A DNA stretch of 64,000 bases from positions 88,650 through 152,649 of the forward strand of contig CAZNZL010000002.1 in assembly GCA_964577565.1 (NCBI GenBank), given 5' to 3'. This document shows positions 11,661-49,812 of this stretch, one piece after another. A program made the translations under genes and the position numbers. The stretch is from an uncultured Candidatus Saccharibacteria bacterium (GTDB lineage Bacteria > Patescibacteriota > Saccharimonadia > Saccharimonadales > JAGQNJ01). Position 1 is the first letter of the stretch. Each line of letters begins with the position of its first letter. The notes under the pieces were generated by a model. It ran no database searches and was not told the origin of the DNA. It saw only the letters and a list, made by a program, of their open reading frames with translations.

Positions 11661-11662
11661 AC

Positions 11663-14452: not shown

Positions 14453-14472
14453 GGTCTAGGCTGCTCCTTAAT

Positions 14473-17294: not shown

Positions 17295-17328
17295 TAAGTA
17301 TGTTGCCCACCATGACCTTACCGTTCGT

Positions 17329-30471: not shown

Positions 30472-32136
30472 TTAAAGGAAGAAGCGACCAGAGCGTGAAA
30501 GAAAATTAAACTTGGTTTTCTGTAGGGCGACCGTTGATTCTGACGTGCACCCGTAGTTCAGCTGGATAGAACGTCGGCTTGCGGAGCCGGAGGTCACAGG
30601 TTCGAATCCTGTCGGGTGTACCATATCGCTAATTTGAGTCGTTTTTGAACGGCTCATTTTTACTTTTAAAGAGTAAATCTCACTAACTTTAGGGGTGTAA
30701 ACTTTTTCGGCTGACTCAAACATTACTCTGTCTTTAAACAACAATTGTTTACACTCCCAGAATGTTGTACCCTGTAACGTCCACCAGTTTTGTCTTATAT
30801 GCTCGGCAAAGTCGATAGCAAACTTGGAGAACTCTATAAAATCTTCATCAACACTACTGGCTTGTACTATCTGTTTCCCAACATCTTCTATCTCCAGTTT
30901 TATCCTATCAATCTCAGGCTTTATATCCTCAGCTAGGTCAGGATTGAGGCTTAGACTTAGCACCAAGCTGCTTTTCTTTGACAGTAGTTCGTCCTTAAGG
31001 TTTCTCAGGTTCTTGGCTCGTTCTAAGCGGTAAACTTCTTCCTCTTTCCATACAAATTCAAGGGCGGATTTAAGGTCCGCCCTGGTATCGTCCGTCATCT
31101 CTAAATCGTCTAGAACATCGTTGATAGCCTTGTGCATTGTGTCTCGTGGGTAAGCCTTTTTGCACACCCTACAATGATAGTCGTTCCGCACCCAGCCTTT
31201 ACCGTTTTTGTGTACGCCGCCAGTAAATCTGCCCTCGTGTTTAGCATCTAAGCAATTGGCGTGATTAATAATGTTCTTTAAGGGAAACTCGGGGTTAAAC
31301 TGTTTCTTGCGTGTCTTCTTACGACCAGAAACAATTGCAACATTACGTTCGTATTCTTCGGGACTTATCATAGCCTCGCGTAGGCCTTTAGCTTCGGGCC
31401 AACCCTCTTTGATGAATATCCTGCCACAGTAATATGAGTCCAGCACAATAAGGTGAAAACGCTGCATATCTATTTTATTGCCTTGTGCAGTAGTGAATCC
31501 GCTGTCAAGCAGCCATCTCAGGGCTTCTGCTTCGGTCATAGCAAGCCTAGATATAGCTTTAAGTGCCGTTTGTAGCAATTTAAAACGGTTGCCTCTATCG
31601 TCTCGAACGTGAAGTCCTGCAACAGTGCCTTTCCTATAACCTAGATGTGGGTAGAACGGATAATAGCCATCAGCAACACGTTCTTTCATCTTGGTTGTAA
31701 CCGTAAGTATGCGTTCTTCGTTTTCTACTTCTGCATCATAGCTACCACGAGCCAATTCATACGACGCTTCGGCGGTATCGCCGTTGTATTTATGCTGGGA
31801 TGGGTCGCAGAAGATTAGCTTAACACCAAGCTGCTTAAACAAAACCTTAAAGTAGAACACCATATCAAGCTCACGCATAAAACGGCTTACCTTATCAACG
31901 AGTAAAAATTGTATGCCTTTGTTGTGCTTGCAGTAGGACAGGGCTTCTAGTAAGTCTTTCCGCCTCAGGTTTTTACCCTTTTTGCTAGAGGTTGCCATAG
32001 CCCACTCGTGAACAATTTCGGCTTCTAACTCATCAGCCATCTTGTTTACGCTAGATTGCTGTTGCTTCAAACTGTGATTGTTATCTTTTTGCTTCTTAGA
32101 TGAAACTCGCCTTATGGCGATTGCCTTTGCTTTCAT
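30472..32136 (-). CDS. Large serine recombinase (resolvase catalytic domain + recombinase domain + zinc ribbon), probable integrase of a tRNA-Arg-linked element
   Basis: N-terminal AIAIRRVSSKKQ...SLKQQ and LLVDKVSRFMREL...GVKLIF match the resolvase catalytic domain. CRVCKKAY is a zinc-ribbon. The C-terminal ~50 codons read through the tRNA-Arg in antisense (TGFEPVTSGS), so the annotated C-terminus may be artificially extended. Confidence 0.7.
   Translation of the reverse strand: MKAKAIAIRRVSSKKQKDNNHSLKQQQSSVNKMADELEAEIVHEWAMATSSKKGKNLRRKDLLEALSYCKHNKGIQFLLVDKVSRFMRELDMVFYFKVLFKQLGVKLIFCDPSQHKYNGDTAEASYELARGSYDAEVENEERILTVTTKMKERVADGYYPFYPHLGYRKGTVAGLHVRDDRGNRFKLLQTALKAISRLAMTEAEALRWLLDSGFTTAQGNKIDMQRFHLIVLDSYYCGRIFIKEGWPEAKGLREAMISPEEYERNVAIVSGRKKTRKKQFNPEFPLKNIINHANCLDAKHEGRFTGGVHKNGKGWVRNDYHCRVCKKAYPRDTMHKAINDVLDDLEMTDDTRADLKSALEFVWKEEEVYRLERAKNLRNLKDELLSKKSSLVLSLSLNPDLAEDIKPEIDRIKLEIEDVGKQIVQASSVDEDFIEFSKFAIDFAEHIRQNWWTLQGTTFWECKQLLFKDRVMFESAEKVYTPKVSEIYSLKVKMSRSKTTQISDMVHPTGFEPVTSGSASRRSIQLNYGCTSESTVALQKTKFNFLSRSGRFFL
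30547..30623 (+). tRNA. tRNA-Arg (anticodon read as GCG)
   Basis: GCACCCGTAGTTCAGCTGGATAGAACGTCGGCTTGCGGAGCCGGAGGTCACAGGTTCGAATCCTGTCGGGTGTACCA. The anticodon loop TTGCGGA gives GCG by my hand fold, which should be verified. Confidence 0.75.
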
Positions 32137-32744
32137 GGTTCATTGTTCCTTTTAACCAAAAAGCAGCCCTTTGGGTAAGCCAGTGGAATGGCAAAGGACT
32201 GCTCTTTGAAATCGATTACTAATTAACCACTATATTACCCAGTTATGAATTGTGATTGCCTCACTGAGGCATTGCAACTTTTCTATTTCATTTTATAAAT
32301 GGCATAGAGAAACTTAGCCCAATCAAGTGCTTCCGCGGACGGCTTCCTGGTCTTTGTTTGTTTCTCGGCCAATTGAAAAACAACCCTTTCTTAACCCGAT
32401 ACCAACGTCATTATTTGAATAATTTGCGTGCTTTACGTTGAATCGAATTAGGGTTGTTCTATAGGCTTACCTTGTTTACTTTACTGCCTATAATGATACC
32501 AAATTTAGAGGGCTAAATCAAGCGTACTACCCCCGTTATTTAGTTCATAGATAAACATAAAGTTATGTGGTTATTCCGCAATAATACGCACTCGTATCTT
32601 TTACTTATGAGTAAAGTTTTTTCAGAAATACGGTCCGAATAGGGTTGCTTGAATGGTACATTGATTGGTTCGAATATTTGTAAGGCTTTTGGTAGTTACT
32701 TTCTCTGTTTAACTTTTTGCATAATATTCTGATATATTAGAGCC

Positions 32745-33164
32745 ATGGTTGAGTTGTTTAATACTCCTTTGAGTTCGCCTGTTTACATAGGGCTTCTCGT
32801 TGTTTACTTTATTTGTGAATCAATATCAACGTTTGATACCAGAATCATACAGGCTAAGAAAAACGGATTTCTAAGAGAAGATGAAGCATTTGTCCCTCAA
32901 TGGACAGGCATATTTGCAATTCTTGGCTGGCTTTCTTTTCTTGGTCTGATACTCCTCAACTGGAAAATTGCGATAGCTGTCTTTATCATTAAGTTCATTC
33001 TAAAAGTTGCACCTGTGCTAGAAAATATCGGTGCGTTACTGCTACTTCCTGTAGTTGGTAAAGAAACTGCTTCAGCGGTTAATGTTATGAGTAGAGAACA
33101 GAATAAGGCCGCCAAGTCATTGAAAGCAATGTCCAAAGCGGCTAAAGACAAAAGAGCACCTTAG
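32745..33164 (+). CDS. Small membrane protein, hypothetical (element cargo)
   Basis: Three hydrophobic helices (VYIGLLVVYFICESIS; IFAILGWLSFLGLILLNW; IAVFIIKFILKV). Confidence 0.4.
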   Translation: MVELFNTPLSSPVYIGLLVVYFICESISTFDTRIIQAKKNGFLREDEAFVPQWTGIFAILGWLSFLGLILLNWKIAIAVFIIKFILKVAPVLENIGALLLLPVVGKETASAVNVMSREQNKAAKSLKAMSKAAKDKRAP

Positions 33165-33391
33165 ACTTCATAAATCTGTTTGTATTCAAAGATACGTCAA
33201 TAATTTGGGTGTATGCCTGCAAAATGGCCTAGGTGGCTTGGATTATTTAAATAATCCTGTAAGGTCGTCTAAGGAACTACGAGCTTCAATTTCTATCTGT
33301 TAAATCAGTGATTTTAATGAAAGCAAAGCACTGGTTTAACGACGCCTCTGTGAGCTATTTTGAGCGTGTTTGACAGGTTTTAGCTGCTTAG

Positions 33392-34561
33392 TTGTTAATA
33401 TGTATTTATGAGGGAGCTACTTTAGTGCAACGCGAGTATAGCGTAAACGATTCAACGTACGGACATTTTATGTTCAAAGGTATAAATGTTCTTGAACATA
33501 ATGTAGACGAAGAATTCAATAACATTTATCATACGCTTGCATATTCAGTTTGGGCCAATATCCCTGGGGATACGGGCAGATTGTTTTCTAACGATTTTGT
33601 TGCTAAGAGTGTGGACTATTTTTCGACTAGGACAGATAATGGCCAAGCAGTTTCTGACGGTGATAAATATATTGAAAATCTAACGATTATTCCCAACAGG
33701 TTCAAGGATGCTGGTAATGTAAAAGCTAGTTTTATATCTTGGCTGAAAATTCTTGAGCTTCTAAAAAATATTGAAGACAGATCTGGCAGCAAAATTCATA
33801 AAGGTACTGCGTTCTATTTTGCCGCTGGCGATGCAATTGAATCAAATGATTTTGAGTCCGGCATGATTATGATGCATCTGGCATTGAACGAAGACATTGC
33901 AAATAATCCAGACTGGGAAAGTACACCTGCACACGCATTTATGACAGTAAACCCTGAGAATGTCGGGCAATATCACAAGCCCCTCGTAGATGAAATGTCT
34001 AACTTAATAAAGAGACGACTAACCGAAGACCAAAAGAGTTATAAAAATTCTAGAAATGGCAATCTTGTTTATGATGATTTTAGGTCAAAATTTCTAAACA
34101 ACACAAACAAGGTCCAAACTTCAGCCAGATACTATTTTGTGTATAGCCTGCTTCGATTCTGGCACATGCGAAAAATTCATAAAGCACGTGTAACTGATGA
34201 CGTAATAGCTCCTTTGGTTTTTGGTAATTTGGTTGGTTCACTAACTCTTGTTGTTGAAACCTTATTGAGGGGAATTGTTCCTGCACCAACTAGGCCGTCG
34301 ATGGCTACAATTCTGCAATCGTTAAACATGGGAATTGATATTGGTTCACTCCAAGCAGAGACTGAAGCAAATGGATTTGACGCAACAATCAATTCTCTTA
34401 TTAGCGACGATTCAATAGAAAGTGACTTCAAAATTGCTTACCTTTGCAGAAACCAGGCCTTTCATGTATTGGAAAATGAGAACGTATACAACCAGCATTA
34501 TATTGAAATCACTCAGTCAATTTTTAATTGTATATTTTATACAGTCGAGAACCATCATTAA
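33392..34561 (+). CDS. Hypothetical protein (389 aa), element cargo
   Basis: Long ORF with no motif I recognize. Confidence 0.4.
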   Translation: MLICIYEGATLVQREYSVNDSTYGHFMFKGINVLEHNVDEEFNNIYHTLAYSVWANIPGDTGRLFSNDFVAKSVDYFSTRTDNGQAVSDGDKYIENLTIIPNRFKDAGNVKASFISWLKILELLKNIEDRSGSKIHKGTAFYFAAGDAIESNDFESGMIMMHLALNEDIANNPDWESTPAHAFMTVNPENVGQYHKPLVDEMSNLIKRRLTEDQKSYKNSRNGNLVYDDFRSKFLNNTNKVQTSARYYFVYSLLRFWHMRKIHKARVTDDVIAPLVFGNLVGSLTLVVETLLRGIVPAPTRPSMATILQSLNMGIDIGSLQAETEANGFDATINSLISDDSIESDFKIAYLCRNQAFHVLENENVYNQHYIEITQSIFNCIFYTVENHH

Positions 34562-35484
34562 GGAAAAGTATGGCAAGGCCAAACAAGAAACAGCATAAAG
34601 TTCCGAAGTCATACATGGAGCCATTTACAGACAAAAATGGCCTTGTATGGGTCGCAGATAAGAATCTAAGGCTCTATCAGGAAAAGCCTAAAAATATTTT
34701 GACTGAGAACGATTACTACACAGTTCGATTTCCTAGTGGTGGCGGAACATTGGCAATTGAAACTAAGTTTTTGGGTGGGATTGAGGCAAGCTATGCGGCA
34801 ATTTATAAAAACAAAATATCTAAGCATGAACTGTTGTCTGACGAAGAAAGGGCGATAGTTGCTATCTTTATTGCTTCAATGCTGGAACGAAGCCCACGCA
34901 GGCGAGAGGCAATCCAAGATATGTTTGACCAGGTAAAGAATATAACGGAAAAGATGCGAGCATCAGTAGCTGCTATGACACCTGAGCAAAGAAAAGTATT
35001 TGAGAGTCAGTCAAAACTAATTGGTGGCAATCCAGATAATTCAATCCCAGCTGATGAATTCTTAAAAGCAGGTGAAGATGTTGGTTCATTCCATAGTTCT
35101 GGAATACCAGAAAGCGTAGCAGTTACTGCACCACTAATTTATGAAATGAAATGGGCGTTTTTGATTCGACCCAAGGAATCAGAACCATTTATAACTTCAG
35201 ATAGTCCATGCACCTTTGATATTCCAACTTTACCGCCAAAATCAATATTCGGAGGGCTGGGCCATAAAGATGTTGAGGTAAGTATGGCAATGTCGCCCGA
35301 TATTGCGATTTTGTGCGGCTATCAAATGGAACAAGATTGGGGCTATATGCCCGCCAAAGAGTCAGAAGTACAGGAAATTAACAGAAGAATAAGGAGGAGG
35401 AGCGAGACGCTTGTAAGCAACGACAAACTACTCCTAGAAAGACAAATTGAGAGAATCAAGTCACTTATTAATCAAAAACCTTAA
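34528..35484 (+). CDS. Hypothetical protein, possibly DUF4238-like
   Basis: The N-terminus KKQHKVPKSYMEPFTD resembles the HxVPxxYLxxF start of DUF4238 proteins, which are common in defence and mobile islands. This is a weak call. Confidence 0.35.
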   Translation: MYILYSREPSLRKSMARPNKKQHKVPKSYMEPFTDKNGLVWVADKNLRLYQEKPKNILTENDYYTVRFPSGGGTLAIETKFLGGIEASYAAIYKNKISKHELLSDEERAIVAIFIASMLERSPRRREAIQDMFDQVKNITEKMRASVAAMTPEQRKVFESQSKLIGGNPDNSIPADEFLKAGEDVGSFHSSGIPESVAVTAPLIYEMKWAFLIRPKESEPFITSDSPCTFDIPTLPPKSIFGGLGHKDVEVSMAMSPDIAILCGYQMEQDWGYMPAKESEVQEINRRIRRRSETLVSNDKLLLERQIERIKSLINQKP

Positions 35485-35690
35485 CTGCATTATTTAAATA
35501 ATTTTGCCTTTAATCAGGGTTGCTTAGGGTTAATAGGTGTTTAGGTCTTTATAGACTAAGGGTTCTATGCCCCCCGGGCTATAACTACTATACTTACCGG
35601 TGCTCTTATATGAGTGATACTCACCAGCGATGATACTTCGCCATCTCTGTAACTCTAGGGTAAGCGGGTGTAAATTTTCACACAGGTAGA

Positions 35691-35733
35691 GTACCACGAA
35701 AGGAGCCAGGTTTTATCCTGGCTTTTTTCGTGG
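35691..35733. repeat. Hairpin module A, copy 1 (GTACCACGAAAGGAGCCAGG-ttttat-CCTGGCTTTTTTCGTGG)
   Basis: Seen directly in the sequence. A near-identical copy lies at 37818-37860. Confidence 0.7.
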
Positions 35734-35853
35734 CTGTTCTGACATGATTCTGGTTCTGTGACAGAGATTTTGCGTAAGCAAAATATCGTAGTCACGGGTT
35801 CGCTCATGAGGAACTATCGCATCCGCCAGCTGGCGGAGAGAAAGTGACGAAAT

Positions 35854-35878
35854 GTTGTCATCCTGCCTTGGTGTACCA
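35854..35878. mobile_element. attR-like degenerate copy of the tRNA-Arg 3' end
   Basis: GTTGTCATCCTGCCTTGGTGTACCA compared with tRNA-Arg 3' end GGTTCGAATCCTGTCGGGTGTACCA is about 17/20 identical with one indel over the 3'-most 20 nt, ending in the identical GGTGTACCA. Confidence 0.5.
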
Positions 35879-35965
35879 GAGTGGAATTACAGATAGGGAT
35901 TGAAATCGTTTTCAATCTCTTTTTTGTTGGATATTTCTTAACACCTTGGAATGAGTTTGAATCCC
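35871..35965 (+). repeat. Cassette-boundary module B, copy 1 (GTGTACCA core + terminator-like hairpin + promoter-like segment)
   Basis: GTGTACCAgagtggaattACAGATAGgGATTGAAatcgtTTTCAATCTCTTTTTTGTTGGAtATTTCTTAACACCTTgGAAT...GAATCCC. The hairpin at 35898-35917 is followed by a T-run. Confidence 0.7.
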
Positions 35966-36021
35966 GTTTGGTGTTTTGCTTGTGCTTGGGATTGAAGTCA
36001 CAATCACCTAAGATTAGATTT

Positions 36022-36402
36022 ATGGCGCTGGAAGATTTATCAGGATTAGTTCAAAGGCTACGTGAAGAAGGCATCAGAACCGAAAGGCTTGATGACTGGC
36101 AGAATAAAGGTCTGCTTGGGATAATGCTCGGTACAGAAAGCGGAGCTTACTATATCGTGGAGCCGGTAGGTAATCCAAGTTTAGTCACAAGGCTTTCCGA
36201 AGCACCCCCATATTATGGTGAATACAGAATGCCTGCTACAGAGGCGATGGTGCGAAGACAAGGAAATCCCGATAGAAGATTGGAATTAGGAAATCCTATG
36301 AATATATTAGGACTTTCAAGAAAAGGTCCAGAGTTTGACCCTGACTCACTATATACAACCACTCCCCTAGTTGAAATTACTTACCTGGAAGCTGCCGGCT
36401 AA
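36022..36402 (+). CDS. Hypothetical cassette protein
   Basis: The ORF track starts at 35881, but residues 1-47 are translated repeat sequence. Start reassigned to MALEDLSG at 36022. The stop TAA at 36400-36402 abuts module B copy 2. Confidence 0.45.
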   Translation: MALEDLSGLVQRLREEGIRTERLDDWQNKGLLGIMLGTESGAYYIVEPVGNPSLVTRLSEAPPYYGEYRMPATEAMVRRQGNPDRRLELGNPMNILGLSRKGPEFDPDSLYTTTPLVEITYLEAAG

Positions 36403-36522
36403 AATTGTTTGAACTTCGTGTACTACCGTGTACCATTTGGTAATTACAGATAGAGATTGAAGTCGCTTTCAATCTCTTTTTAGTTGGACAATTTTAAACA
36501 CCTTAGAATAAGTATGAATCCC
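36403..36522 (+). repeat. Cassette-boundary module B, copy 2
   Basis: aaTTGTTTGAACTTCGTGTACTACCGTGTACCAtttggtaattACAGATAGAGATTGAAGTCGCTTTCAATCTCTTTTTAGTTGGACAATTTTAAACACCTTAGAATaagtaTGAATCCC. It begins immediately after the stop codon. The hairpin at 36455-36474 is followed by a T-run. Confidence 0.75.
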
Positions 36523-36589
36523 ATATATCATCTTGCTTATGCTTGCGCTGCTCGACCCTCATCGTTACTATAGATTTAAGGAGATTTCT

Positions 36590-36967
36590 ATGTCTGGTGA
36601 AAAAATTGGTCAAGAAGCTGATTTGTTAGCTCAGAAAGAACTGTGGGCGCAGTCTATGGCAGACCTAGTTACTACTGAAAGAGGGATAGATGAGGAAACG
36701 GCACTTTCAGCAGCTCGCTGGGCTTGCTTGTGGGTGGATGACTATAAAACTCTAATGGCTGCGCAACCACCAGCTAATTTAGATGAAGTCAAAGCTCACC
36801 TCGAAACCGCAAGAGTAAGCTCACTAGAGAGAAGCACTGGTTTGACGCGTTACCCTACGGGAGTACCTACATTGCGCGCGATTATTGCAGCACAAGATGT
36901 ATTTTGCTGGGCTTTTGGGGATGAAGCAGAAGATGTCAGGCAGCTGCTTGATACTCAGCCAGAATAG
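36590..36967 (+). CDS. Hypothetical cassette protein
   Basis: The ORF track starts at 36533 inside the repeat. Start reassigned to the ATG at 36590, which is preceded by AAGGAG (MSGEKIGQEADLLAQKE...). The stop TAG at 36965-36967 abuts module B copy 3. Confidence 0.5.
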   Translation: MSGEKIGQEADLLAQKELWAQSMADLVTTERGIDEETALSAARWACLWVDDYKTLMAAQPPANLDEVKAHLETARVSSLERSTGLTRYPTGVPTLRAIIAAQDVFCWAFGDEAEDVRQLLDTQPE

Positions 36968-37080
36968 TTTGAACTTCGTGTACTACCGTGTACCATAGTG
37001 AAACTACAGATAGAGATGAAGCACATTTCAGTTTCTTTTTTGATGGATATTTCTTAACACCTTAGAATCCATTTGAACCC
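36968..37080 (+). repeat. Cassette-boundary module B, copy 3 (hairpin partly degenerate)
   Basis: TTTGAACTTCGTGTACTACCGTGTACCAtagtgaaactACAGATAGAGATGAAGcacaTTTCAgTTTCTTTTTTGATGGATATTTCTTAACACCTTAGAATccaTTTGAACCC. Confidence 0.75.
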
Positions 37081-37135
37081 TGTTAAGTGTTTTTCATTAC
37101 CTTATTGCATTTTGTAATGTATATGTGCTATAGTA

Positions 37136-37396
37136 ATGAATATGAAGAATACTATTACTATCACCAGCAAGGGGCAGGCAACCATTCCAGCTTCTTATCG
37201 TCGCAAACTAGGGGTAGGAGCAAACGGAGGCACTCTAGATATACGTTTTGATGAATCTAGGGGCGAACTTGTTATAGCAAAGCCATTAAGCGTAGAGGAG
37301 TTAAGCGAAAAATTAAGTGGTTATATAAAATCAGGGACAAAGCCTCTGGTTGATGTTGATGCTTATTACCAGAAGAATCGTGACGGTCGCAAATAA
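37136..37396 (+). CDS. AbrB/MazE/SpoVT-family antitoxin (VapB-like)
   Basis: TITSKGQATIPASYRRKLGV is a swapped-hairpin beta-barrel motif. The stop overlaps the start of the PIN gene (ATGA). Confidence 0.65.
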   Translation: MNMKNTITITSKGQATIPASYRRKLGVGANGGTLDIRFDESRGELVIAKPLSVEELSEKLSGYIKSGTKPLVDVDAYYQKNRDGRK

Positions 37397-37800
37397 TGAG
37401 ATTCGGCGGCTCATTAGACACGAATGCATTACTGAGGTTACTCTTGAATGACGTGGCCGAACAGCACAAGGCCATAAAAAAATTACTACGTGAGGCGAAG
37501 GGCCAGCTTGCGGTTGCCGACATTGCGATAATTGAATTGGTGTTCGTGCTTGAAAGATACTACGGCTTTTCCCGTCAACAAGTCAGCGAAGCTGTCACCG
37601 GACTTATGCTACTCCGAGAAATAAACTGCAACCGCCCGCTATTTGAAAAAACGCTACCCATTTATATAAGCCATTCTGCACTATCTTTTGAAGATTGCTG
37701 CCTGAGCACATACGCGATACTCAATCAGGCTGAACCCTTATGGACCTTTGATAAAAAGCTGGCTACTCAAGCGAACAGCGCCAAGCTAATTGCCGTTTGA
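37396..37800 (+). CDS. PIN-domain toxin (VapC-like)
   Basis: N-terminal acidic residue in LDTNALLRLL and further conserved acidic residues. The stop TGA lies inside the conserved GTTTGAACTT repeat start. Confidence 0.65.
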   Translation: MRFGGSLDTNALLRLLLNDVAEQHKAIKKLLREAKGQLAVADIAIIELVFVLERYYGFSRQQVSEAVTGLMLLREINCNRPLFEKTLPIYISHSALSFEDCCLSTYAILNQAEPLWTFDKKLATQANSAKLIAV

Positions 37801-37860
37801 ACTTCCCTTACTACCGTGTACCACGAAAGGAGCCAAGTATTATCATGGCTTTCTCGTGGT
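37801..37860. repeat. GTGTACCA junction + hairpin module A, copy 2
   Basis: ACTTCCCTTACTACCGTGTACCACGAAAGGAGCCAAGtattatcATGGCTTTCTCGTGG. Direct repeat of 35691-35733, terminating the cassette array. Confidence 0.7.
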
Positions 37861-42336: not shown

Positions 42337-43173
42337 CTATTGATCTGAAAGTACGTGGTGAATCTGATCAACCACGGGGCCGAGCTCTTCGCGCTTTACG
42401 CCCGCAAACGGAAACGCCGCACCGTGCTCACCAATGTAATCAAGATGTACATGTGCTACCTTAAGCGCAAGTTTGCGTAACTGACTATAGCGGTCTTCGT
42501 GGGTTTCGTCACCTGCCTCAAGAATTTTGAGCGCTACCCTGCCCGCCTGAACACTAGTCATGAGATAACCGATACGCTCAGACAAATTAAATCCTTGCCT
42601 TAGCAGGGTGCCTTCTTTATTGGCGATAGTATCCTCGGCCAGTTCTATTATTTCTTCGGGTACGTCATCGTACAACATCCCAAACAGATATTCTCTTATA
42701 ATAGCTTCACTAACTTCATGATCATCAGTTTTGTCATGAAAGGAAACATCACCGACGGGAGTGATGCCACAAGCTTCCGCTAGCTCCGGTAGTTCACATT
42801 CGCCCGTATCATGAAGAAGTGCCCCCAGCCTACCTCCAACTACTTCTAAATTGGTAAATGGTTCTGCGCCTGGTGTTGTTTGCTGGTGTAGAGCTAACAA
42901 GCGAAAAATATTTTCTTCAGTATGCGTCATGTGCCGCAGCGGGTGAATATCGTCGCCCAAGTCTGCCAACATCTGGGTACGATCGTAACCATATTTTTGG
43001 GCGTATCTAACGGGTTGCGTTGCATGATGAACGCCAAAGTCGCTCGTGGCATAACGGCCAAAAAGCTCGTCGTAAGTTAGGTGGGTTGCCCCTGGGTGTA
43101 ATAAATTTGGCGATGTTATTGCCACCAAGTCTGCTGTTTCCCCACCCCGTAATGCTTCGACGCTCGTGCTCAT
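42337..43173 (-). CDS. HD-domain metal-dependent phosphohydrolase-like protein
   Basis: H...HD arrangement: IHPLRHMTHTEEN followed by LGALLHDTGE. Confidence 0.45.
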   Translation of the reverse strand: MSTSVEALRGGETADLVAITSPNLLHPGATHLTYDELFGRYATSDFGVHHATQPVRYAQKYGYDRTQMLADLGDDIHPLRHMTHTEENIFRLLALHQQTTPGAEPFTNLEVVGGRLGALLHDTGECELPELAEACGITPVGDVSFHDKTDDHEVSEAIIREYLFGMLYDDVPEEIIELAEDTIANKEGTLLRQGFNLSERIGYLMTSVQAGRVALKILEAGDETHEDRYSQLRKLALKVAHVHLDYIGEHGAAFPFAGVKREELGPVVDQIHHVLSDQ

Positions 43174-43862: not shown

Positions 43863-44192
43863 ATGGAGCTTTATTATATGGAGAGTGTGAAAAAAACATC
43901 CGACAGAAACACCGAAGCAAGTACAGAAGATAGCGATATAAAAACCGCACAGAAAGCAGACTTATCTGATACTGATGCTTTGCTTGAAGAAATTGACGAA
44001 CTACTTGCAGATGAAGTAGCTGCAAGTGAGGCTGCTGAACGTGAAGCTTATAAAGAAAAGTTGCGGTCAATTAACTTTATAGGCAAGAGGGCTACTGATC
44101 CTTGTGCTGATGTAATAAGGGTGCCTGAATTTATGGCTGAACCTTTACTGCGAACAGGGATGTTTAAGGAATCAAATTGCGAAGGCTGCTAA
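43863..44192 (+). CDS. Small acidic protein with a Pup-like helix motif
   Basis: TDALLEEIDELLADE resembles the Pup Mpa-binding helix TDDLLDEIDDVLEE. It lacks a C-terminal GGQ/GGE. A more likely start is MESVKK at 43878. Confidence 0.35.
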   Translation: MELYYMESVKKTSDRNTEASTEDSDIKTAQKADLSDTDALLEEIDELLADEVAASEAAEREAYKEKLRSINFIGKRATDPCADVIRVPEFMAEPLLRTGMFKESNCEGC

Positions 44193-44309: not shown

Positions 44310-45158
44310 TTAAACATTGTAGCTGCTTAAGTCTTGTGCAACCGTTATTTTGCCCTTAAAGCCCGAGCGTCGCGCATCGTTAATGATTTCTGCTACAGAG
44401 TTATTGCCGGTATAGTGTGTGAACACAAGTTTTGCACTGTTTGCACGTTGAGCGAGTACGGCTGCTTCGTACGGATTAAGGTGGCCTTGATCTAGTGGCT
44501 TGCCAATATCAATCGCAGCTTCGCATAAAAATAGGTCTGCATTGTTGGCAGCTAATTGTAGTCCGGGTGACAACGTTGAATCGCCGGAATAGGCGATGAT
44601 TGCACTGGGAGTTTCAATGCGGTATGAGTATGCCTCTAGTTGATAATGTTTCGTTTTGTAAGCAGCTATTGATAACTGACTATTAATATTTACACGATAC
44701 TTGTTGACTAAAGGGGTGAACTTTAAATTTACTCGCTTTAGCAAATCTTTATTGTACGACCATCCTTTTGTCATGTATTCAGTGCGCACCTCTTCTTCAA
44801 TGTCAGACGGTCCAATAATATGAAGCGATTCTTTTTGGCTCCTCTTCATGGCGTATAAATAAAAAGCTTGTAAAATTGGCTCAAGCACAAAATGATCTGC
44901 ATGATAATGACTGATACACACAACATCAATGTCGGTTAGTTTGATTCCTAGCTTGTCTATTTGCGGTAAAACACCTATTCCTGCATCGAGTAATATTTTG
45001 TAATCGCCAACCTCTAGTAGGTGTGATGACGGGTATCGAAACTTACCTTCGCCTTGTGTAATAGATATGCCCGACCCAAGAACGGTTAATTTTACCGGAA
45101 TTGTTCGTTGCGCTTTTTTGTTTGCCATTTTTTTATGGCGCATGATTTTTCGAAGCAT
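44310..45158 (-). CDS. Metallo-beta-lactamase fold hydrolase (possibly class II phosphodiesterase/RNase Z-like)
   Basis: HxHxDH motif ISHYHADHF, with additional His and Asp residues downstream. Confidence 0.7.
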   Translation of the reverse strand: MLRKIMRHKKMANKKAQRTIPVKLTVLGSGISITQGEGKFRYPSSHLLEVGDYKILLDAGIGVLPQIDKLGIKLTDIDVVCISHYHADHFVLEPILQAFYLYAMKRSQKESLHIIGPSDIEEEVRTEYMTKGWSYNKDLLKRVNLKFTPLVNKYRVNINSQLSIAAYKTKHYQLEAYSYRIETPSAIIAYSGDSTLSPGLQLAANNADLFLCEAAIDIGKPLDQGHLNPYEAAVLAQRANSAKLVFTHYTGNNSVAEIINDARRSGFKGKITVAQDLSSYNV

Positions 45159-45168
45159 GTCTCTATGC

Positions 45169-45813
45169 CTACACCATTACTTCCATTTGACAAGCATATT
45201 GTTCTTCAGGCAGATACACACTGTACTTTATGGTCCCAACGTCATCGTACTTTTCTTTGCCAGTGTAATGTTTGAGTTCATTTGTTATGGTAATATCTTT
45301 CTGAAAGGGTTCAGTAAGCATAATATAGTTATCTTGCGGAACCGAATTTTTTAATAATCTATGAGCAGCTATTACATCTACACCAGACAACTCCTCGTAC
45401 TGAGCAATTTTATGCAATAGGGCCTTTCCCTGGTGCACAATAATTTTTAGACCCAGTTTTTCTATGCCCCGACATGAGTTACCGTAGCATAGTTTAGAGC
45501 CACTTAGGTTAACAAGTTCGCACGCAAAGGTTTCAAAAAATAAGGGTAGTTTACGAGCTATTAGTTGTCTGGTATTACGCCACTTGGCTCTGTTTTTGTC
45601 TCTTACTGCATAGACAAAAACAGCATCGCCCTCAAGTTTAGAGACTTTTAAGGGGATTTTAATTTGTTCGATCAGCGCCGCAATCAGTTCACCAATAACG
45701 ACCTCACTATGAACCTCGTGGCTGCGGTGATTTGCAATCATAAACTTTGTATAACCGCTAATATCTAAGAGAATGAGAATGGCATCTCTACGCTTAACGC
45801 GATTAAAAAACAT
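45169..45813 (-). CDS. Stand-alone class III nucleotidyl cyclase (CHD) domain protein
   Basis: ILLDISGYTKF (metal-binding Asp, FxDIxGFT-like), KLEGDAVFVYAV (second Asp), and GVDVIAAHRLLKNSVP (G..VN.AARL-like). Confidence 0.6.
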   Translation of the reverse strand: MFFNRVKRRDAILILLDISGYTKFMIANHRSHEVHSEVVIGELIAALIEQIKIPLKVSKLEGDAVFVYAVRDKNRAKWRNTRQLIARKLPLFFETFACELVNLSGSKLCYGNSCRGIEKLGLKIIVHQGKALLHKIAQYEELSGVDVIAAHRLLKNSVPQDNYIMLTEPFQKDITITNELKHYTGKEKYDDVGTIKYSVYLPEEQYACQMEVMV

Positions 45814-45965
45814 AAGCTTATTTTAGCACGGCGTGCCAAGCCAAGATTTTGGCGGCTATTCAAATCTTTCGCACCGATCGAAGCATACGCCCAGAAAAGA
45901 AACGGACTCGTTTGTCGTAATGTTCATTTTGACTTATACTAAGCTTATAAACATAAGCAGCTAAG

Positions 45966-46520
45966 GTGAACTACATGCCAAAGCAGTCTATCTCAATCGT
46001 GAACGAAAAAAGTTTTTTTGTGTTGGCATTAGCCAGAATTGCGCTTGGACTGACGTTTTTATGGGCCTTTTTAGACAAACTGATGGGGTTGGGTTTTGCG
46101 ACCTGTCGCGATGCTAAAACCGATGCCGTAACTATGTTTTGCGAGAAAGCATGGGTTAATGGCGGCTCACCAACGTCCGGCTTTTTACAATTTGGCACTA
46201 AGGGCCCCCTGGCGGGCTTTTATCAGAGCCTGGCTGGTAATGCTGTTATAGATTTTCTCTTTATGGCTGGCCTGTTGCTTATAGGGGTTGCCCTAATTGC
46301 AGGTATAGCCATGAGGTTGGCAACTATATCGGGTACACTGCTACTGTTAATGATGTGGTCTTCGATGTTGTTACCCGAAAATAATCCGATTATTGACGAG
46401 CATATTATTTATTCGCTTGTATTGTTGAGCCTTCTGGCCTCAAATAGCCAGCAAAGGTTAGGTTTACGCAGTTGGTGGGTTAGGCTTCCTGTTGTCAAGA
46501 GATTTCCGGTTATGGAGTAG
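45966..46520 (+). CDS. DoxX-family membrane protein
   Basis: Four TM helices with the DoxX-like start FFVLALARIALGLTFLWAFLDKL. Confidence 0.55.
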   Translation: MNYMPKQSISIVNEKSFFVLALARIALGLTFLWAFLDKLMGLGFATCRDAKTDAVTMFCEKAWVNGGSPTSGFLQFGTKGPLAGFYQSLAGNAVIDFLFMAGLLLIGVALIAGIAMRLATISGTLLLLMMWSSMLLPENNPIIDEHIIYSLVLLSLLASNSQQRLGLRSWWVRLPVVKRFPVME

Positions 46521-46525
46521 GCAAT

Positions 46526-48193
46526 TTGCCGATGGCAAAAGCAAATAACATCAGACCAGCAATACGGCGCTTTTTTAAGGGCGACATACATGACAACTGG
46601 GCCGCCAAAAGATTTTATAGCCATGATGCCAGCCTGTTTGAATTAGAGCCCGAGCTGGTTGTCTTTCCGCAAGATGTTGATGACATTTGTCAGCTGGTAA
46701 AGTATGTTCAAAATAATAAAAAATCAAACCCTAGTTTGTCACTCACTGGCCGTAGCGGCGGTACCGATATGTCGGGTGGCGCTATTAATGACTCAATCAT
46801 TGTTGCCTTCGAGCGTTATTTTACGCATATCAAACCTTTAAAAGACAAAACAGTAAGCACTCAACCCGGCGTTTATTATCGAGATTTTGAGCGCGTGACA
46901 CTAAAAAACAACCTGCTCTTACCAACCTACCCTGCCTCACGCGAGCTTTGTATGATTGGCGGTATGGTGGCAAATAATGCAGGCGGAGAAAAATCTTTAA
47001 TCTATGGTAAAACCGACCAATATGTAACTCAACTTACAATTGTTTTAAAAGATGGGCAAGAGCACACGTTTAAGCCACTACAGAAAGCAGAGCTCACAAA
47101 AAAGCTCAAAGAAAAGGGGCTCGAAGGTGATATTTACAGGGGTATCTATAAATTAGTAACTGAACAAAGCGAAACTATAGCCGGATCGAAGCCGCAGGTT
47201 AGCAAAAATTCTACCGGTTACAATATTTGGGATGTATGGGACGGCAAAACCTTTGACCTAACTAAAATTATTGTCGGGTCGCAAGGAACATTAGGTCTTA
47301 TAACTGAAGTAACGTTTCGTTTAGTGCCCGCTAAACCGCTGTCAGGAATGCTGGTAGTCTTCTTAAAAGACCTTGATTCACTCGGCGAGATTATAAAAGA
47401 GACCCTACCGCTACAACCCACAAGCCTGGAATCATTTGATAATCATACGTTAAAATTTGCATTTCAATTTTTCTTTAGTTTTCGTAAAACACTTGGCTGG
47501 AAACGGTTTATTTTGTTGGGACTCAGTTTTATACCGGTCTTAAAGCATATCTTGCGTTTTTTACCGAGCTTTCCCAAGATTGTTATGTTGTGCCAGTTTG
47601 AGGGTGACAATCAAAAACAAATAGATCAAAAAATCCTTGCCTTGCAAAAAATCATGGAACGCAGAGGTATTGCTACGCAACCAGCCGAAAACAAGCACCA
47701 AGAAGAAAAATTTTGGATAATGCGCCGCGAAAGCTTTAATTTGTTAAGAAAAAACGTGAGACGCAAGCACACCGCGCCGTTTATTGACGATTTGATTGTG
47801 CCGCCTGATGTTTTGCCAGAATTTTTGCCTCGCCTGATAGCTATATTAGAGCGCTACAAGTTTTTGTACACCATTGCTGGCCACATGGGTGACGGCAACT
47901 TTCATGTTATTCCGCTAATGAACCTAAGAAACAAATCAGAACGCCAAAAAATCTACCCTGCGTTAGAAGAGGTAACCAAGCTGGTGCTTGAATATCATGG
48001 GTCACTTTCAGGTGAGCATAATGACGGAATGATACGCGGACCAATGCTAGAACACATGTATAGTCCAGAAATGGTCGCAATTTTTAAGCAAATTAAACAT
48101 ATATTTGACCCCGACAATATTTTTAATCCGCATAAAAAAACTGACGCAAATTTGGAATTTTCTAAACGCCACATCAGGAGAAACTTTTTATAA
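46526..48193 (+). CDS. FAD-linked oxidase (PCMH-type FAD-binding; GlcD/D-lactate dehydrogenase-like)
   Basis: FAD-binding segment FPQDVDDICQLVKY...GRSGGTDMSGGAIND and a C-terminal oxidase domain. Confidence 0.7.
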   Translation: MPMAKANNIRPAIRRFFKGDIHDNWAAKRFYSHDASLFELEPELVVFPQDVDDICQLVKYVQNNKKSNPSLSLTGRSGGTDMSGGAINDSIIVAFERYFTHIKPLKDKTVSTQPGVYYRDFERVTLKNNLLLPTYPASRELCMIGGMVANNAGGEKSLIYGKTDQYVTQLTIVLKDGQEHTFKPLQKAELTKKLKEKGLEGDIYRGIYKLVTEQSETIAGSKPQVSKNSTGYNIWDVWDGKTFDLTKIIVGSQGTLGLITEVTFRLVPAKPLSGMLVVFLKDLDSLGEIIKETLPLQPTSLESFDNHTLKFAFQFFFSFRKTLGWKRFILLGLSFIPVLKHILRFLPSFPKIVMLCQFEGDNQKQIDQKILALQKIMERRGIATQPAENKHQEEKFWIMRRESFNLLRKNVRRKHTAPFIDDLIVPPDVLPEFLPRLIAILERYKFLYTIAGHMGDGNFHVIPLMNLRNKSERQKIYPALEEVTKLVLEYHGSLSGEHNDGMIRGPMLEHMYSPEMVAIFKQIKHIFDPDNIFNPHKKTDANLEFSKRHIRRNFL

Positions 48194-49365
48194 TGCAAGT
48201 GGTAATTGTAGGAGGCGGTTTTGGTGGCGTAAAAGCAGCTTTATCGCTAGCAAATAAACGCGACATAGAGGTTAAGCTGATATCATCGCAGAACATTTTC
48301 GAATATCATGCTGCCCTGTATAGAGCCGCTACGGGACGCTCACCGCTTGAGGTTGCCATACCCCTTAATGATTTTTTTGCCTACGCTCATAACATAGAGG
48401 TTGTGATCGATACTATAAATGATATTAATCCAAAAACTAAACACGTTTTAGGTGATTCGGGTGCTCGGTATCAGTTTGATGCGCTCATTTTGGCGATGGG
48501 CAACGTAACTGATTACTATAATATTAAAGGGTTAAAAAAGTATTCGTACGGTGTTAAAACAATTCACCAGGCATTAAAACTAAAACGTCATTTGCACGAA
48601 CAATTGTTGAATGCAGAGTCTGACAATGACTATGTTGTGGTTGGGGCTGGCGCGACGGGCGTAGAATTAAGTGCTGAGCTAACGGCTTACTTAAAAAAAA
48701 TTCGTCGTAAGCACAAAATTAAACGCAAATTTACGGTTCATCTTATTGAGGCTGGCCCAAGGGTGCTTGCCGCTATGCCAGCAAACTTCTCAAGCGTAGT
48801 TCAAAAACGGCTCAAAAAGCTCGGCGTAAAAACACGTTTTAATACGCCTGTCTTGTCAGAAACCATGGACGGCATCAAACTTGAAACCAAGCCCATACAA
48901 TCGCACACTGTCGTATGGACGGCTGGCGTTGTCAATAACCCCTTGTTTAGTAAATTTCCGGATGTTTTTAAAACCGGCAAATTGGGGCGCGTAAAGGTAG
49001 ATGAGTTTCTACAAGCCTCGCCAGATTTATACGTTATAGGAGACAGCGCCCTAACACCTTACAGCGGCATGGCTCAAACCGCCTTAAAAGATGCTGATTT
49101 TGTAGCACGTAATATTTTACGAGCACAAAAAGGCCGGTCTGCTCTAACGTATCGACCCAAGCAGCCAGTGTATGCAATACCGGTAGGCACACGATGGGCA
49201 GCTGTTTTATGGGGTAATATTCGCGTACATGGGCGATTTGGTTGGGTGCTACGGCGTATTGCTGATCTTCGGTTGTATCTCTTGTTTTTGCCCATGGCGA
49301 AGGCGGTTCGGGTTTGGCGGTACGGCTATGAAGATGTTGAGGTTTGCCCGGTGTGCAAGCAGTAG
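48193..49365 (+). CDS. Type II NADH dehydrogenase-like FAD/NAD(P)-binding oxidoreductase
   Basis: Two Rossmann dinucleotide motifs, VVIVGGGFGGV and VVVGAGATGVE. Confidence 0.7.
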   Translation: MQVVIVGGGFGGVKAALSLANKRDIEVKLISSQNIFEYHAALYRAATGRSPLEVAIPLNDFFAYAHNIEVVIDTINDINPKTKHVLGDSGARYQFDALILAMGNVTDYYNIKGLKKYSYGVKTIHQALKLKRHLHEQLLNAESDNDYVVVGAGATGVELSAELTAYLKKIRRKHKIKRKFTVHLIEAGPRVLAAMPANFSSVVQKRLKKLGVKTRFNTPVLSETMDGIKLETKPIQSHTVVWTAGVVNNPLFSKFPDVFKTGKLGRVKVDEFLQASPDLYVIGDSALTPYSGMAQTALKDADFVARNILRAQKGRSALTYRPKQPVYAIPVGTRWAAVLWGNIRVHGRFGWVLRRIADLRLYLLFLPMAKAVRVWRYGYEDVEVCPVCKQ

Positions 49366-49377
49366 TACTATGTAGGT

Positions 49378-49812
49378 ATGATAAAAAAAGTCACTAACTC
49401 AATTTTTAATGATTTGATCTTTATTACGTGGATCGTTGCCCTGGTGGCTACAATTGGTAGCCTGGGTTTGAGCGAGGTTATGAATTTAACACCATGCACG
49501 CTTTGCTGGTATCAGCGAATTTTGATGTTCCCGCTTGCCTTTATTTTAGGGGTAGGTGTATATCGTAAAGACACTAATGCCGCCTACTATGGGTTGCCCT
49601 TAAGTATTGTTGGCGGGCTGATTGCGCTGTATCATTCATTGTTGCAATGGGGCATTATAAAAGAGGTAGTATCAACCTGTTCTATTGATAGCTCGTGCGC
49701 GGTCCCGCAGATTAACTGGCTTGGTTTTATTACCATACCCTTCATGTCGTTCTTATCATTCCTAGTTATAAGTGCCTTGATGTTTTTACAGGTACGACGT
49801 TTGCGTAGATAA
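49378..49812 (+). CDS. dsbB: Disulfide bond formation protein B (DsbB/BdbC family)
   Basis: Four TM helices. CxxC in the first loop (CTLCWYQR) and a second Cys pair in the second loop (CSIDSSC). Confidence 0.65.
   Translation: MIKKVTNSIFNDLIFITWIVALVATIGSLGLSEVMNLTPCTLCWYQRILMFPLAFILGVGVYRKDTNAAYYGLPLSIVGGLIALYHSLLQWGIIKEVVSTCSIDSSCAVPQINWLGFITIPFMSFLSFLVISALMFLQVRRLRR

Follow-up and report, generated by a model that had tools for sequence, protein, structure and literature searches.

Proteins of the DUF2652 family were predicted from sequence to be class III cyclase-like, and were described as 'nucleotide cyclase-like proteins', by Ramakrishnan et al. (2016, Biol Direct 11:27, PMC4886424), who also cited Rv1900c as an active class III cyclase that lacks the catalytic Asn. 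Metallo-beta-lactamase (MBL) fold hydrolases of the PF12706 type have been termed 'atypical class II PDEs' (PMC9293780); YhfI prefers cAMP and cGMP, and Apyc1 degrades all cNMPs (PMC9117128). Some Saccharibacteria clades have been reported to possess an adenylate cyclase (PMC8386444).

A gene of each of these two kinds was found side by side in the stretch of Saccharibacteria DNA analysed here (64,000 nucleotides in all, hereafter the window). An earlier note on the same DNA had regarded the two as a candidate cyclic-nucleotide signalling or defence module. The comparisons described below indicate that each protein belongs to a described family and that the pair, found in no other genome examined, does not constitute a conserved module for signalling or anti-phage defence.

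Arrangement and transcription of the two genes

The DUF2652-family gene (45169..45813, minus strand) is a 214-aa ORF matching Pfam PF10851 with an E value of 3.2e-25, and the MBL-fold hydrolase gene (44310..45158, minus strand) is a 282-aa ORF matching Pfam Lactamase_B_2 with an E value of 6.7e-16; these matches identify both ORFs as real genes and not chance ORFs. They share the minus strand and, as noted earlier, are set apart by 10 nt (45159..45168). This distance holds for the ORFs, and probably not for the genes themselves. Aligned orthologues of the MBL protein begin with 'MKLTVLGSG' and have a length of about 260 aa. Translation therefore probably begins at an internal ATG (M6 or M11), in which case the gap would be 25-40 nt and the functional protein probably about 262-272 aa instead of the 282 aa of the ORF.

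The terminator scan revealed no minus-strand terminator-like site or hairpin between the two genes, and their co-transcription is therefore predicted as likely. The 10-nt gap by itself is weakly informative, since close spacing is the norm in the window, as evident from the 5-nt, overlapping and 12-nt junctions at 46520/46526, 48193 and 49365/49378, respectively, on the ORF map. A divergent intergenic region of 152 nt (45814..45965, no strand assigned) separates the DUF2652 gene from a plus-strand operon encoding membrane-protein, FAD-oxidase, NDH-2-like and DsbB-like products (ORF map; Pfam and NCBIfam). The promoter of the pair presumably lies within this region, where the promoter scan found no minus-strand sigma-70-like match. 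The GroEL gene is located 16 kb from the pair, and the GroEL proteins of close relatives show 88-94% identity. A tRNA-flanked island around the pair was considered and rejected; no att-like direct repeat of tRNA-Arg was found.

Families and folds of the two proteins

By its profile match, the 214-aa protein can be assigned clearly to DUF2652, as an ordinary member of that family. The match to PF10851 scores 88.9 bits against a gathering cut-off of 22.1 and spans model positions 1-118 of 118, and all 913 homologues retrieved are annotated as DUF2652, a family of 3,186 cluster representatives at 50% identity. This membership in a family already described (PMC4886424) had been missed in the earlier note. 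The motifs quoted there are all present, viz. LLDISGYT (residues 15-22), GDAVF (62-66) and GVDVIAAHRL (144-153) in the 214-aa protein and HxHxDH in its neighbour, and the absence of sensor or TM domains from the 214-aa protein was correctly recognised.

Alignments revealed as family-invariant the residues D17, G20-Y21-T22, E61-G62-D63-A64, C109, C114, K123, H127, G144, I148, H151, L153-N156 (including K155 and N156), Y163 and E187, with K59, E141 and R152 also conserved. Across 57 DUF2652 sequences, 25 columns are invariant (DISGYT, EGDA, the Cys pair, VH(S/Q)G and HRLLKN), and the window protein retains every one of them. It lacks the middle Cys of the CxCxxC motif carried by most members, a position (C111 column) that is otherwise almost invariant, as well as the C-terminal amphipathic/hydrophobic tail seen in most homologues of 250-300 aa. 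Tandem DUF2652-DUF2652 proteins exist, in keeping with a dimeric active site of the cyclase type, and fusions to SAM-methyltransferase domains are recurrent; one fusion to a polyketide-cyclase/SRPBCC domain has been recorded (PMC4886424).

The AlphaFold (AF2) model of the protein (pLDDT 90.4) displays one compact domain comprising residues 6-200. When this model was compared with the PDB by Foldseek, the best 50 matches were all class III adenylyl or guanylyl cyclases with a probability of 1.0, for example CyaC (1wc1; E 2e-9, TM 0.68/0.75). As modelled, the protein is a single class III cyclase-homology domain of divergent sequence. Both metal-binding Asp residues (D17 and D63, assigned following PMC4886424) are invariant in the 57 sequences and the transition-state Arg (R152) is present, while the position of the canonical transition-state Asn is occupied by an invariant Ile (I148; alignment and PMC4886424). 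The class III motifs claimed for the protein are thus borne out as far as the fold, the metal-binding Asp pair and R152 are concerned, and not at the Asn position.

The K59/E141 pair matches neither of the base-specifying pairs (Lys/Asp for ATP, Glu/Cys for GTP), on a mapping derived from motif spacing and a weak hhalign result (probability 9.9%). The hhalign comparison was made with one canonical cyclase, aligned the C-terminal half only and was used to confirm the mapping published in PMC4886424. Neither the window protein nor three of its homologues matched Guanylate_cyc (PF00211) of Pfam at E<=10, and no PDB sequence was matched to DUF2652 by sequence search or by the family profile.

The 282-aa ORF scores 58.9 bits with PF12706 (Lactamase_B_2; cut-off 27), and carries the HxHxDH motif as HYHADH at residues 84-89. 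Its metal ligands H84, H86, D88, H89, H171, D193, H226 and H248 do not vary across 44 aligned sequences, and its AF2 model (pLDDT 94.4) consists of a single catalytic domain. The protein is a binuclear-zinc hydrolase of the ElaC/YhfI/BA1088 type, without the exosite arm of RNase Z. PDB sequence and fold searches rank BA1088 (1zkp), 8gyg and YhfI (6kns) first, followed by RNase Z and Apyc1. The earlier attribution of the fold of class II cNMP phosphodiesterases agrees with this ranking, the closest characterised relatives being YhfI and then Apyc1.

The NCBIfam model NF041851 (cyc_nuc_deg_phdiest) aligns with the MBL protein from end to end with 100.3 bits, against a cut-off of 400. The match to NCBIfam RNase_Z (TIGR02651; 100 bits against an equivalog cut-off of 293) is split, with its best stretch at model positions 2-150 of 302, and the skipped middle is taken to be the exosite (flexible) arm. 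Pfam Anti-Pycsar_Apyc1 (PF23023) matches the N-terminal 52 residues only, with 23 bits against a cut-off of 50. By analogy with YhfI, the substrate is most likely a 3',5'-cyclic purine nucleotide, and less likely RNA, another phosphodiester or a sulfate ester.

Conservation of the pair and its interpretation

The neighbourhoods of DUF2652 genes were surveyed at 80 GTDB species loci (37-49% identity, 824 kb in total). The window MBL is adjacent to DUF2652 at 0 of these 80 loci, and phmmer gave no match to it anywhere in the 824 kb. A profile search detected an MBL-like ORF within 6 kb of DUF2652 at 2 of the 80 loci, which is about the chance level, and neither is adjacent in an operon. The commonest neighbour family occurs at no more than 7 loci out of 80, and these reflect a lineage-specific synteny of Verrucomicrobia. 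The closest DUF2652 homologue (55% identity) has an MMPL transporter next downstream, and the next homologue examined (48% identity) is surrounded by MutS, DUF4383 and unknown genes. From the side of the MBL protein, orthologues with 41-53% identity were examined in four further Saccharimonadales-type genomes; no DUF2652 gene lies near them, and their neighbours are unrelated and mutually different. Nor does a DUF2652 gene lie near any of 80 more distant MBL loci. The claim of a conserved module is contradicted by these results from both sides, a lack of co-conservation elsewhere being what the earlier note had itself named as grounds for refuting it.

No DUF2652-MBL fusion protein was found. 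A metagenome scan for close DUF2652 relatives, made with a single-protein query, gave 134 pattern matches, none of which was confirmed; a scan with the MBL-orthologue alignment gave distant relatives only (23-33% identity) and therefore says little about the surroundings of orthologues. The databases searched contain no orthologue of more than 55% identity to either gene, and conservation was tested among more distant relatives; the only other copy of the locus is identical in sequence. The chance of a PF12706 MBL being the downstream neighbour of a given gene is estimated at about 0.3-1%, and one adjacency in about 84 loci equals the chance expectation. A thiol-redox link of DUF2652, considered in view of MsrAB, redoxin-YHS, DUF1223 and Pyr_redox neighbours and of the adjacent redox operon in the window, was rejected as unsupported because the signal comes mostly from one syntenic Verrucomicrobia clade and Pyr_redox_2 is too common.

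On balance, we favour the explanation that two independently distributed single-domain enzymes have come to lie head-to-tail by happenstance in one Saccharibacteria-type lineage, forming neither a conserved system nor an anti-phage one. As its fold suggests, the DUF2652 protein would then act as a homodimer that converts ATP or GTP to a 3',5'-cNMP and pyrophosphate, with two Mg2+/Mn2+ ions bound by D17 and D63, the purine base recognised by K59 and E141, and the transition state stabilised by R152. The two zinc ions of the MBL protein would hydrolyse a phosphodiester. Two counter-points to independence are that a predicted cNMP-making fold followed directly downstream by a predicted cNMP-breaking one, both on the same strand with no terminator between them, is thematically coherent, and that the estimated chance of such a downstream neighbour for a given gene is low.

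In a second, tentative reading, the DUF2652 protein makes cAMP, cGMP or another cNMP and the co-transcribed YhfI-like MBL protein hydrolyses it to the 5'-NMP, the two genes forming a lineage-specific operon. The MBL enzyme would set the lifetime of the signal in a reduced episymbiont genome, with the receptor encoded elsewhere. The shared strand, the 10-nt gap without a terminator, the intact two-metal site of the cyclase fold and the adenylate cyclase reported in some Saccharibacteria clades (PMC8386444) are consistent with such an operon, as are the cNMP phosphodiesterases that constitute the nearest characterised relatives of the MBL protein and its full-length, sub-cut-off match to the NCBIfam phosphodiesterase model. 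It is opposed by the absence of the pairing from about 83 other DUF2652 loci and about 86 MBL-side loci, by the agreement of a single adjacency with chance and by the lack of any cNMP-binding protein among the scanned window proteins. Moreover, the cyclase activity of DUF2652 is a prediction for a protein missing the catalytic Asn, and the MBL clade also includes RNases and an arylsulfatase. That DUF2652 proteins are sensor-less cyclases, wired here to a YhfI-like phosphodiesterase as a minimal two-gene cNMP circuit in a genome-reduced episymbiont, is in our judgement a little less probable still; such a circuit, if true, would be the first functional handle on DUF2652 and a natural pair for identifying its product.

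A further alternative, which we consider improbable, is that DUF2652 is a palm-domain protein other than a cyclase, whose role is regulatory or depends on nucleotides in some other way, perhaps under redox or metal control by way of the conserved Cys motif, or perhaps linked to the methylation of small molecules, and that the MBL protein is an unrelated RNA or phosphodiester hydrolase. The replacement of the catalytic Asn by an invariant Ile, the failure of Guanylate_cyc and of the PDB profile search to connect the family with cyclases, the family's own invariants (C109 and C114, within CxCxxC in most members, H151, K155, N156, Y163 and E187), its methyltransferase and SRPBCC fusions and the lack of consistent cNMP-signalling neighbours of DUF2652 would all suit such a role. 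However, strict or near invariance is seen for the metal-binding Asp pair, the Lys, the Arg and the acidic specificity residue, and this would be difficult to account for if no nucleotide-triphosphate chemistry were involved; some active class III cyclases, such as Rv1900c (PMC4886424), also lack the Asn.

A Pycsar- or CBASS-like interpretation (the earlier note had pointed to the logic of Pycsar-type systems), in which a minimal cyclase senses infection and its cNMP activates an MBL nuclease effector (or, as a variant, the MBL protein is an Apyc1-like regulator), is very improbable and close to refuted: the two-gene logic of a small sensor-less cyclase beside a second enzyme, the weak Anti-Pycsar_Apyc1 match and a serine recombinase with a low-GC stretch about 12-14 kb away are outweighed by the silence of all PADLOC models, PycC included, at E<=1 for either protein, by a best-50 Foldseek set of canonical adenylyl/guanylyl cyclases, by a pair neither conserved nor mobile as a unit, by the ordinary, variable housekeeping neighbourhoods of DUF2652 genes and by an MBL protein whose single catalytic domain comes without TM, TIR or cNMP-binding domains, whereas a Pycsar effector needs a cNMP-sensing domain.

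As matters stand, the significance of the locus is very little, as both proteins fall into described families, their pairing does not recur and no new defence or signalling system is to be counted. The confident AlphaFold model and the fold search add structural support to the cyclase-like prediction made from sequence for DUF2652 in 2016, and the one-off adjacency to a YhfI-type phosphodiesterase offers a possible route to the DUF2652 product.

Comparison with known systems

The window pair resembles Pycsar in having a small stand-alone cyclase-fold protein adjoining a second gene, and differs from it in PycC HMM match, cNMP-binding effector, pair conservation and defence-island context, none of which it shows. 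Phage Apyc1 (7u2r, 7u2s and 7t28) has in common with the MBL protein the MBL fold and an active site of the class II phosphodiesterase type; it is more distant than YhfI (TM 0.64-0.69, 16-19% identity), and the window gene, unlike that of Apyc1, stands in a chromosomal, non-phage context. RNase Z/ElaC (1y44, 2cbn and 3zwf) belongs to the same superfamily with the same metal site, whereas the MBL protein is shorter by ~40-60 aa and its HMM match skips the flexible-arm (exosite) region.

The atypical class II (PF12706) enzymes compared, i.e. B. subtilis YhfI (6kns), B. anthracis BA1088 (1zkp), M. tuberculosis Rv1339 and C. glutamicum CpdA, share with the MBL protein a length of ~250-260 aa, HxHxDH plus the H/D/H/H ligands and the absence of an exosite. 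The best matches by sequence and fold lie in this group (BA1088, E 2e-23 and TM 0.78/0.87; YhfI, TM 0.78/0.89); however, the identity to the group is only 23-28%, the score lies below the NCBIfam phosphodiesterase cut-off, and the arylsulfatase 8gyg matches the MBL protein equally well as the YhfI/BA1088 group.

The DUF2652 protein has the same fold as Spirulina CyaC (1wc1), OaPAC (4yut) and Cya2 (2w01), with a Foldseek probability of 1.0 and TM 0.6-0.75, and it has in common with canonical cyclases both metal-binding Asp residues, the second of which is preceded by a Lys at a distance of four residues, as well as the transition-state Arg and a motif resembling IH(S/T)G. It differs from canonical class III cyclases in its identity of only 12-20%, in its silence to the Guanylate_cyc HMM, in an Ile in place of the canonical Asn, in a Glu in place of the canonical specificity Asp/Cys and in carrying an additional conserved Cys loop, which lies between helix 75-104 and strand 121-136.

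As compared to other DUF2652 members, the window protein is short (214 aa), having neither the C-terminal tail nor the middle Cys, and its gene has an MBL neighbour that the other members examined do not have. It is single-domain and cytosolic, as are nearly all members, and shares with the set of PMC4886424 the same invariant residues, the Lys-Glu pair, the Asn-to-Ile replacement and the conserved Arg. That set came from Actinobacteria, Bacteroidetes and Proteobacteria only, and the present protein extends the range of DUF2652 to Saccharibacteria/CPR.

The gene pair and its surroundings

Two minus-strand open reading frames were confirmed where an earlier, sequence-only note had placed them, and the Pfam matches to both mark them as real genes. 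Gene 1 (45169-45813, 214 aa) matches DUF2652 (PF10851, E 3.2e-25) and carries the motifs LLDISGYT (residues 15-22), GDAVF (62-66) and GVDVIAAHRL (144-153). Gene 2 (44310-45158, 282 aa), of the metallo-beta-lactamase (MBL) fold, matches Lactamase_B_2 (PF12706, E 6.7e-16) and carries HYHADH at residues 84-89. The gap between them is 10 nt as annotated. Since the orthologues of gene 2 are ~260 aa long and begin with MKLTVLGSG, its true start is probably M6 or M11, which would give a spacer of 25-40 nt. A terminator scan found no terminator-like hairpin between the two genes on the minus strand, which makes their co-transcription likely as judged from the sequence. The window is gene-dense, and spacers of a few nucleotides are usual in it. 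The window also encodes a GroEL (61878-63530) that shares 82% identity with GroELs labelled Candidatus Saccharibacteria or Saccharimonadales, and many metagenomic GroELs are closer to it (88-94%); one gene 2 orthologue also carries a Saccharimonadales label.

Upstream of the pair and divergent from gene 1 lies a tightly packed operon (45966-49812, plus strand). Its products are a multi-pass membrane protein of 184 aa that matches no Pfam family, a GlcD/YdiJ-like FAD-linked oxidase of 555 aa (split between two genes in the Logan assembly L001), a pyridine-nucleotide-disulfide oxidoreductase resembling NDH-2 and a disulfide oxidoreductase of the DsbB/BdbC type. Convergent with gene 2 is a 109-aa acidic ORF (43863-44192, plus strand) containing 'TDALLEEIDELL', which gives a sub-threshold Pfam Pup match (E 0.022; 16 bits, cut-off 27). 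The ORF lacks a GGQ/GGE end, no Dop or PafA gene was found among the scanned window proteins, and the match is probably due to chance. A 278-aa protein (42337-43173, minus strand), whose only match is a weak one to the HD domain (E 0.026), lies 1.1 kb from the pair and would, were that match genuine, be another possible phosphohydrolase.

Farther away, large minus-strand genes at 8137-21128, several without Pfam match, resemble a type IV secretion or conjugation-like cluster, with a VirB4/TraG-type P-loop ATPase (14473-16422, minus strand), a 641-aa phage-tail-lysozyme and GDSL-lipase protein (9735-11660, minus strand) and a 929-aa protein ending in an amidase_2 domain (11663-14452, minus strand). 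The 3' end of a serine recombinase ORF (30472-32136, minus strand) overlaps a tRNA-Arg gene (30547-30623, plus strand). The lowest-GC stretch of the window (32001-36000, 0.38-0.40) holds mostly unannotated ORFs and a DUF4238 protein (34528-35484). Recombinase, tRNA and low-GC stretch may together represent an integrated element, although a search for att-like repeats derived from the tRNA-Arg gave none. Three copies of a ~560-bp unit at 35691-37852 share a 118-nt core at 100/80/60% identity, with exact repeats of 29 nt (36407 and 36967) and 35 nt (35691 and 37818); the repeated unit is either a small gene or an intergenic element.

Distribution of the two genes

The earlier note had proposed the pair as a candidate signalling or defence module; on present data it is not a conserved one, being absent from every other locus examined except L001, an identical sequence from a sequencing run. 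DUF2652 loci were surveyed with one genome per GTDB species, and the best 80 of 513 confirmed loci (37-49% identity, many phyla) were analysed with flanks of at most 6 kb, 824 kb of sequence altogether. No homologue of the window's MBL protein was found in these 80 loci by phmmer. A 44-sequence MBL profile gave two matches, a 292-aa HxHxDH protein 670 bp upstream in L059, with an opposite-strand ORF between it and the DUF2652 gene, and, in L054, half an MBL that forms the C-terminus of a VioB-like ORF. We estimate that the genomic density of PF12706 genes would yield about two matches in 824 kb.

All-against-all clustering revealed no neighbour family in more than 7 of the 80 loci, the larger clusters coming from one Verrucomicrobia clade with shared synteny. 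A Pfam census of 155 immediate neighbours was just as flat, with alpha/beta hydrolases (5), tricorn protease (4, all in Ignavibacteria) and macro domains (3), and no MBL-fold family occurs among the 25 most frequent families of either census list. An MMPL transporter gene follows that of the closest homologue (P0002, 55%); P0006 (48%), examined next, has MutS, DUF4383 and unknown genes as neighbours, and the neighbours in a Saccharibacteria MAG (L032) have no Pfam match. Among the 150 best representatives, ten longer DUF2652 proteins were scanned for fusions: the partners are SAM-methyltransferases, unannotated extensions or a second DUF2652, in no case an MBL domain. From the other side, gene 2 orthologues (41-53%) were examined in four other genomes; their neighbours are unrelated and differ from one genome to the next (isochorismatase/GDPD; glyoxalase; PurE/acetyltransferase; peptidase S51/RimK). 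No DUF2652 gene was found within 6 kb of these orthologues, nor at 80 more distant metagenome MBL loci.

These observations are best explained by two independently distributed single-domain enzymes, which would be adjacent and probably co-transcribed in this lineage only. A lineage-specific coupling, in which gene 1 would make and gene 2 would break a cyclic nucleotide, is coherent, though we consider it rather unlikely. Chance would suffice to give one adjacency in ~84 DUF2652 loci, and the finding was itself selected for thematic coherence.

Fold and family of the DUF2652 protein

Gene 1 is an ordinary DUF2652 protein. In a search of 5.8 billion proteins it had 913 homologues; among the 120 listed, all carry PF10851 only and the best independent one shares 55% identity. 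A profile search of 1.84 billion cluster representatives gave 3,186 family members at E<=1e-3. The only paper found to analyse the family (Ramakrishnan et al. 2016, PMC4886424), a work without experiments, used profile comparison and threading to predict a fold like that of class III cyclases. It described two metal Asp and an Arg as conserved, along with a Lys-Glu pair, and noted that Ile replaces the transition-state Asn. Our 57-sequence alignment reproduces this pattern: D17, E61-G62-D63, K123, H127, I148 and H151 are invariant and R152 nearly so, together with the family-specific C109, C114, K155, N156, Y163 and E187. In a smaller 24-sequence alignment K59 is nearly invariant and E141 is conserved.

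The AlphaFold model from the 57-sequence alignment is a confidently predicted single domain (pLDDT 90.4, pTM 0.88), and its top 50 Foldseek matches in the PDB are class III adenylyl/guanylyl cyclases only, such as CyaC (1wc1, E 2e-9, TM 0.68/0.75), OaPAC, soluble GC and mammalian AC C2. No Guanylate_cyc match was obtained at E<=10, nor any PDB sequence match with the family profile. In a weak hhalign alignment with the canonical cyclase of L041, I148 lines up with the Asn, R152 with the Arg, E141 with the specificity Asp and H127 with the IH(T/S)G motif, in agreement with the published mapping. Tandem DUF2652-DUF2652 proteins exist (P0384), as is expected of a domain working as a head-to-tail dimer, and three others of similar length match the profile in two stretches (P0476, P0484, P0489). 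Since alignment, model and Foldseek agree, the label of class III cyclase is right for fold and metal site; the family was already described, and the activity is a prediction. Fold and conserved residues suggest that gene 1 would most likely be a homodimeric two-metal nucleotide cyclase.

The invariant C109/C114 pair lies between the long helix and the central strand, and over 90% of members carry CxCxxC, its middle Cys missing in the window protein, P0002 and P0006; the motif could be a metal or redox site foreign to canonical cyclases. DUF2652 is repeatedly fused to a C-terminal SAM-dependent methyltransferase domain of the UbiE/Methyltransf_11/25/31 type (L054 5971-7218; P0453, P0468, P0473), which is unusual for a signalling cyclase. 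The Cys motif and these fusions, together with the Asn-to-Ile change, are the grounds for supposing that DUF2652 is not a cyclase, which we consider improbable.

Forms of ~410 and ~540 aa have unannotated C-terminal extensions. At the C-terminus of many DUF2652 proteins (P0011, P0019, P0022, P0029, P0071 and P0092, ~292-373 aa), an amphipathic segment leads into a hydrophobic helix of TM type and then a basic tail, which suggests membrane anchoring; the window protein has no such tail. Canonical class III cyclases adjoin DUF2652 genes in two loci, one from an Anaerolineae MAG (L041, 4212-5327), where the gene immediately upstream is a ferredoxin(Fer2)-Guanylate_cyc fusion, and one from a Dehalococcoidia MAG (L054, 2154-4319), where, by N-terminal motifs only, a cyclase fused to a large C-terminal region lies 1.6 kb upstream. 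A neighbourhood of MsrB-MsrA, a redoxin protein with a YHS-type region (by inspection), DUF1223 and an alpha/beta hydrolase is conserved in L010, L031, L033, L034, L043, L047, L051, L064 and L068, mostly Verrucomicrobia subdivision 3/Limisphaerales; it is lineage-specific and not seen in the other loci examined.

The MBL protein and known systems

The proposal of Pycsar-type anti-phage defence is hardly credible: a PADLOC search with both proteins gave no match at E<=1, the two genes are not inherited as a unit in the loci examined, and DUF2652 genes lie in ordinary chromosomal contexts. Lacking a cNMP-binding, TM or TIR domain, the gene 2 protein cannot serve as a Pycsar-type effector.

Gene 2 retains the full binuclear-zinc ligand set (H84, H86, D88, H89, H171, D193, H226, H248), invariant in 44 aligned sequences, and its AlphaFold model has a pLDDT of 94.4. 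Its nearest solved structures by sequence, profile and fold are BA1088 of B. anthracis (1zkp), arylsulfatase 8gyg and YhfI of B. subtilis (6kns), followed by RNase Z and Apyc1, the order differing between sequence and fold searches. A preference for cAMP/cGMP has been shown for YhfI and for a second, related MBL phosphodiesterase of B. subtilis, whereas Apyc1 cleaves all cNMPs (Hobbs et al. 2022, PMC9117128); Rv1339 and CpdA, termed 'atypical class II PDE', belong to the same PF12706 group (PMC9293780). Given this kinship, a cNMP phosphodiesterase is the best single guess; by analogy with YhfI, it would be a binuclear-zinc enzyme with a cyclic purine nucleotide as likeliest substrate. The clade is functionally mixed, and gene 2 falls outside every curated equivalog.

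The original observation is confirmed and its interpretation partly supported, the folds and the alternative of the MBL protein as a phosphodiesterase, an activity so far predicted, being reasonable. Both genes are new members of families already known. Against the NCBIfam RNase Z model gene 2 scores 100 bits (cut-off 293), the alignment being split and leaving out the model's middle part; against NF041851, 'cyclic nucleotide-degrading phosphodiesterase', it also scores 100 bits, below the cut-off of 400, but aligns end-to-end.
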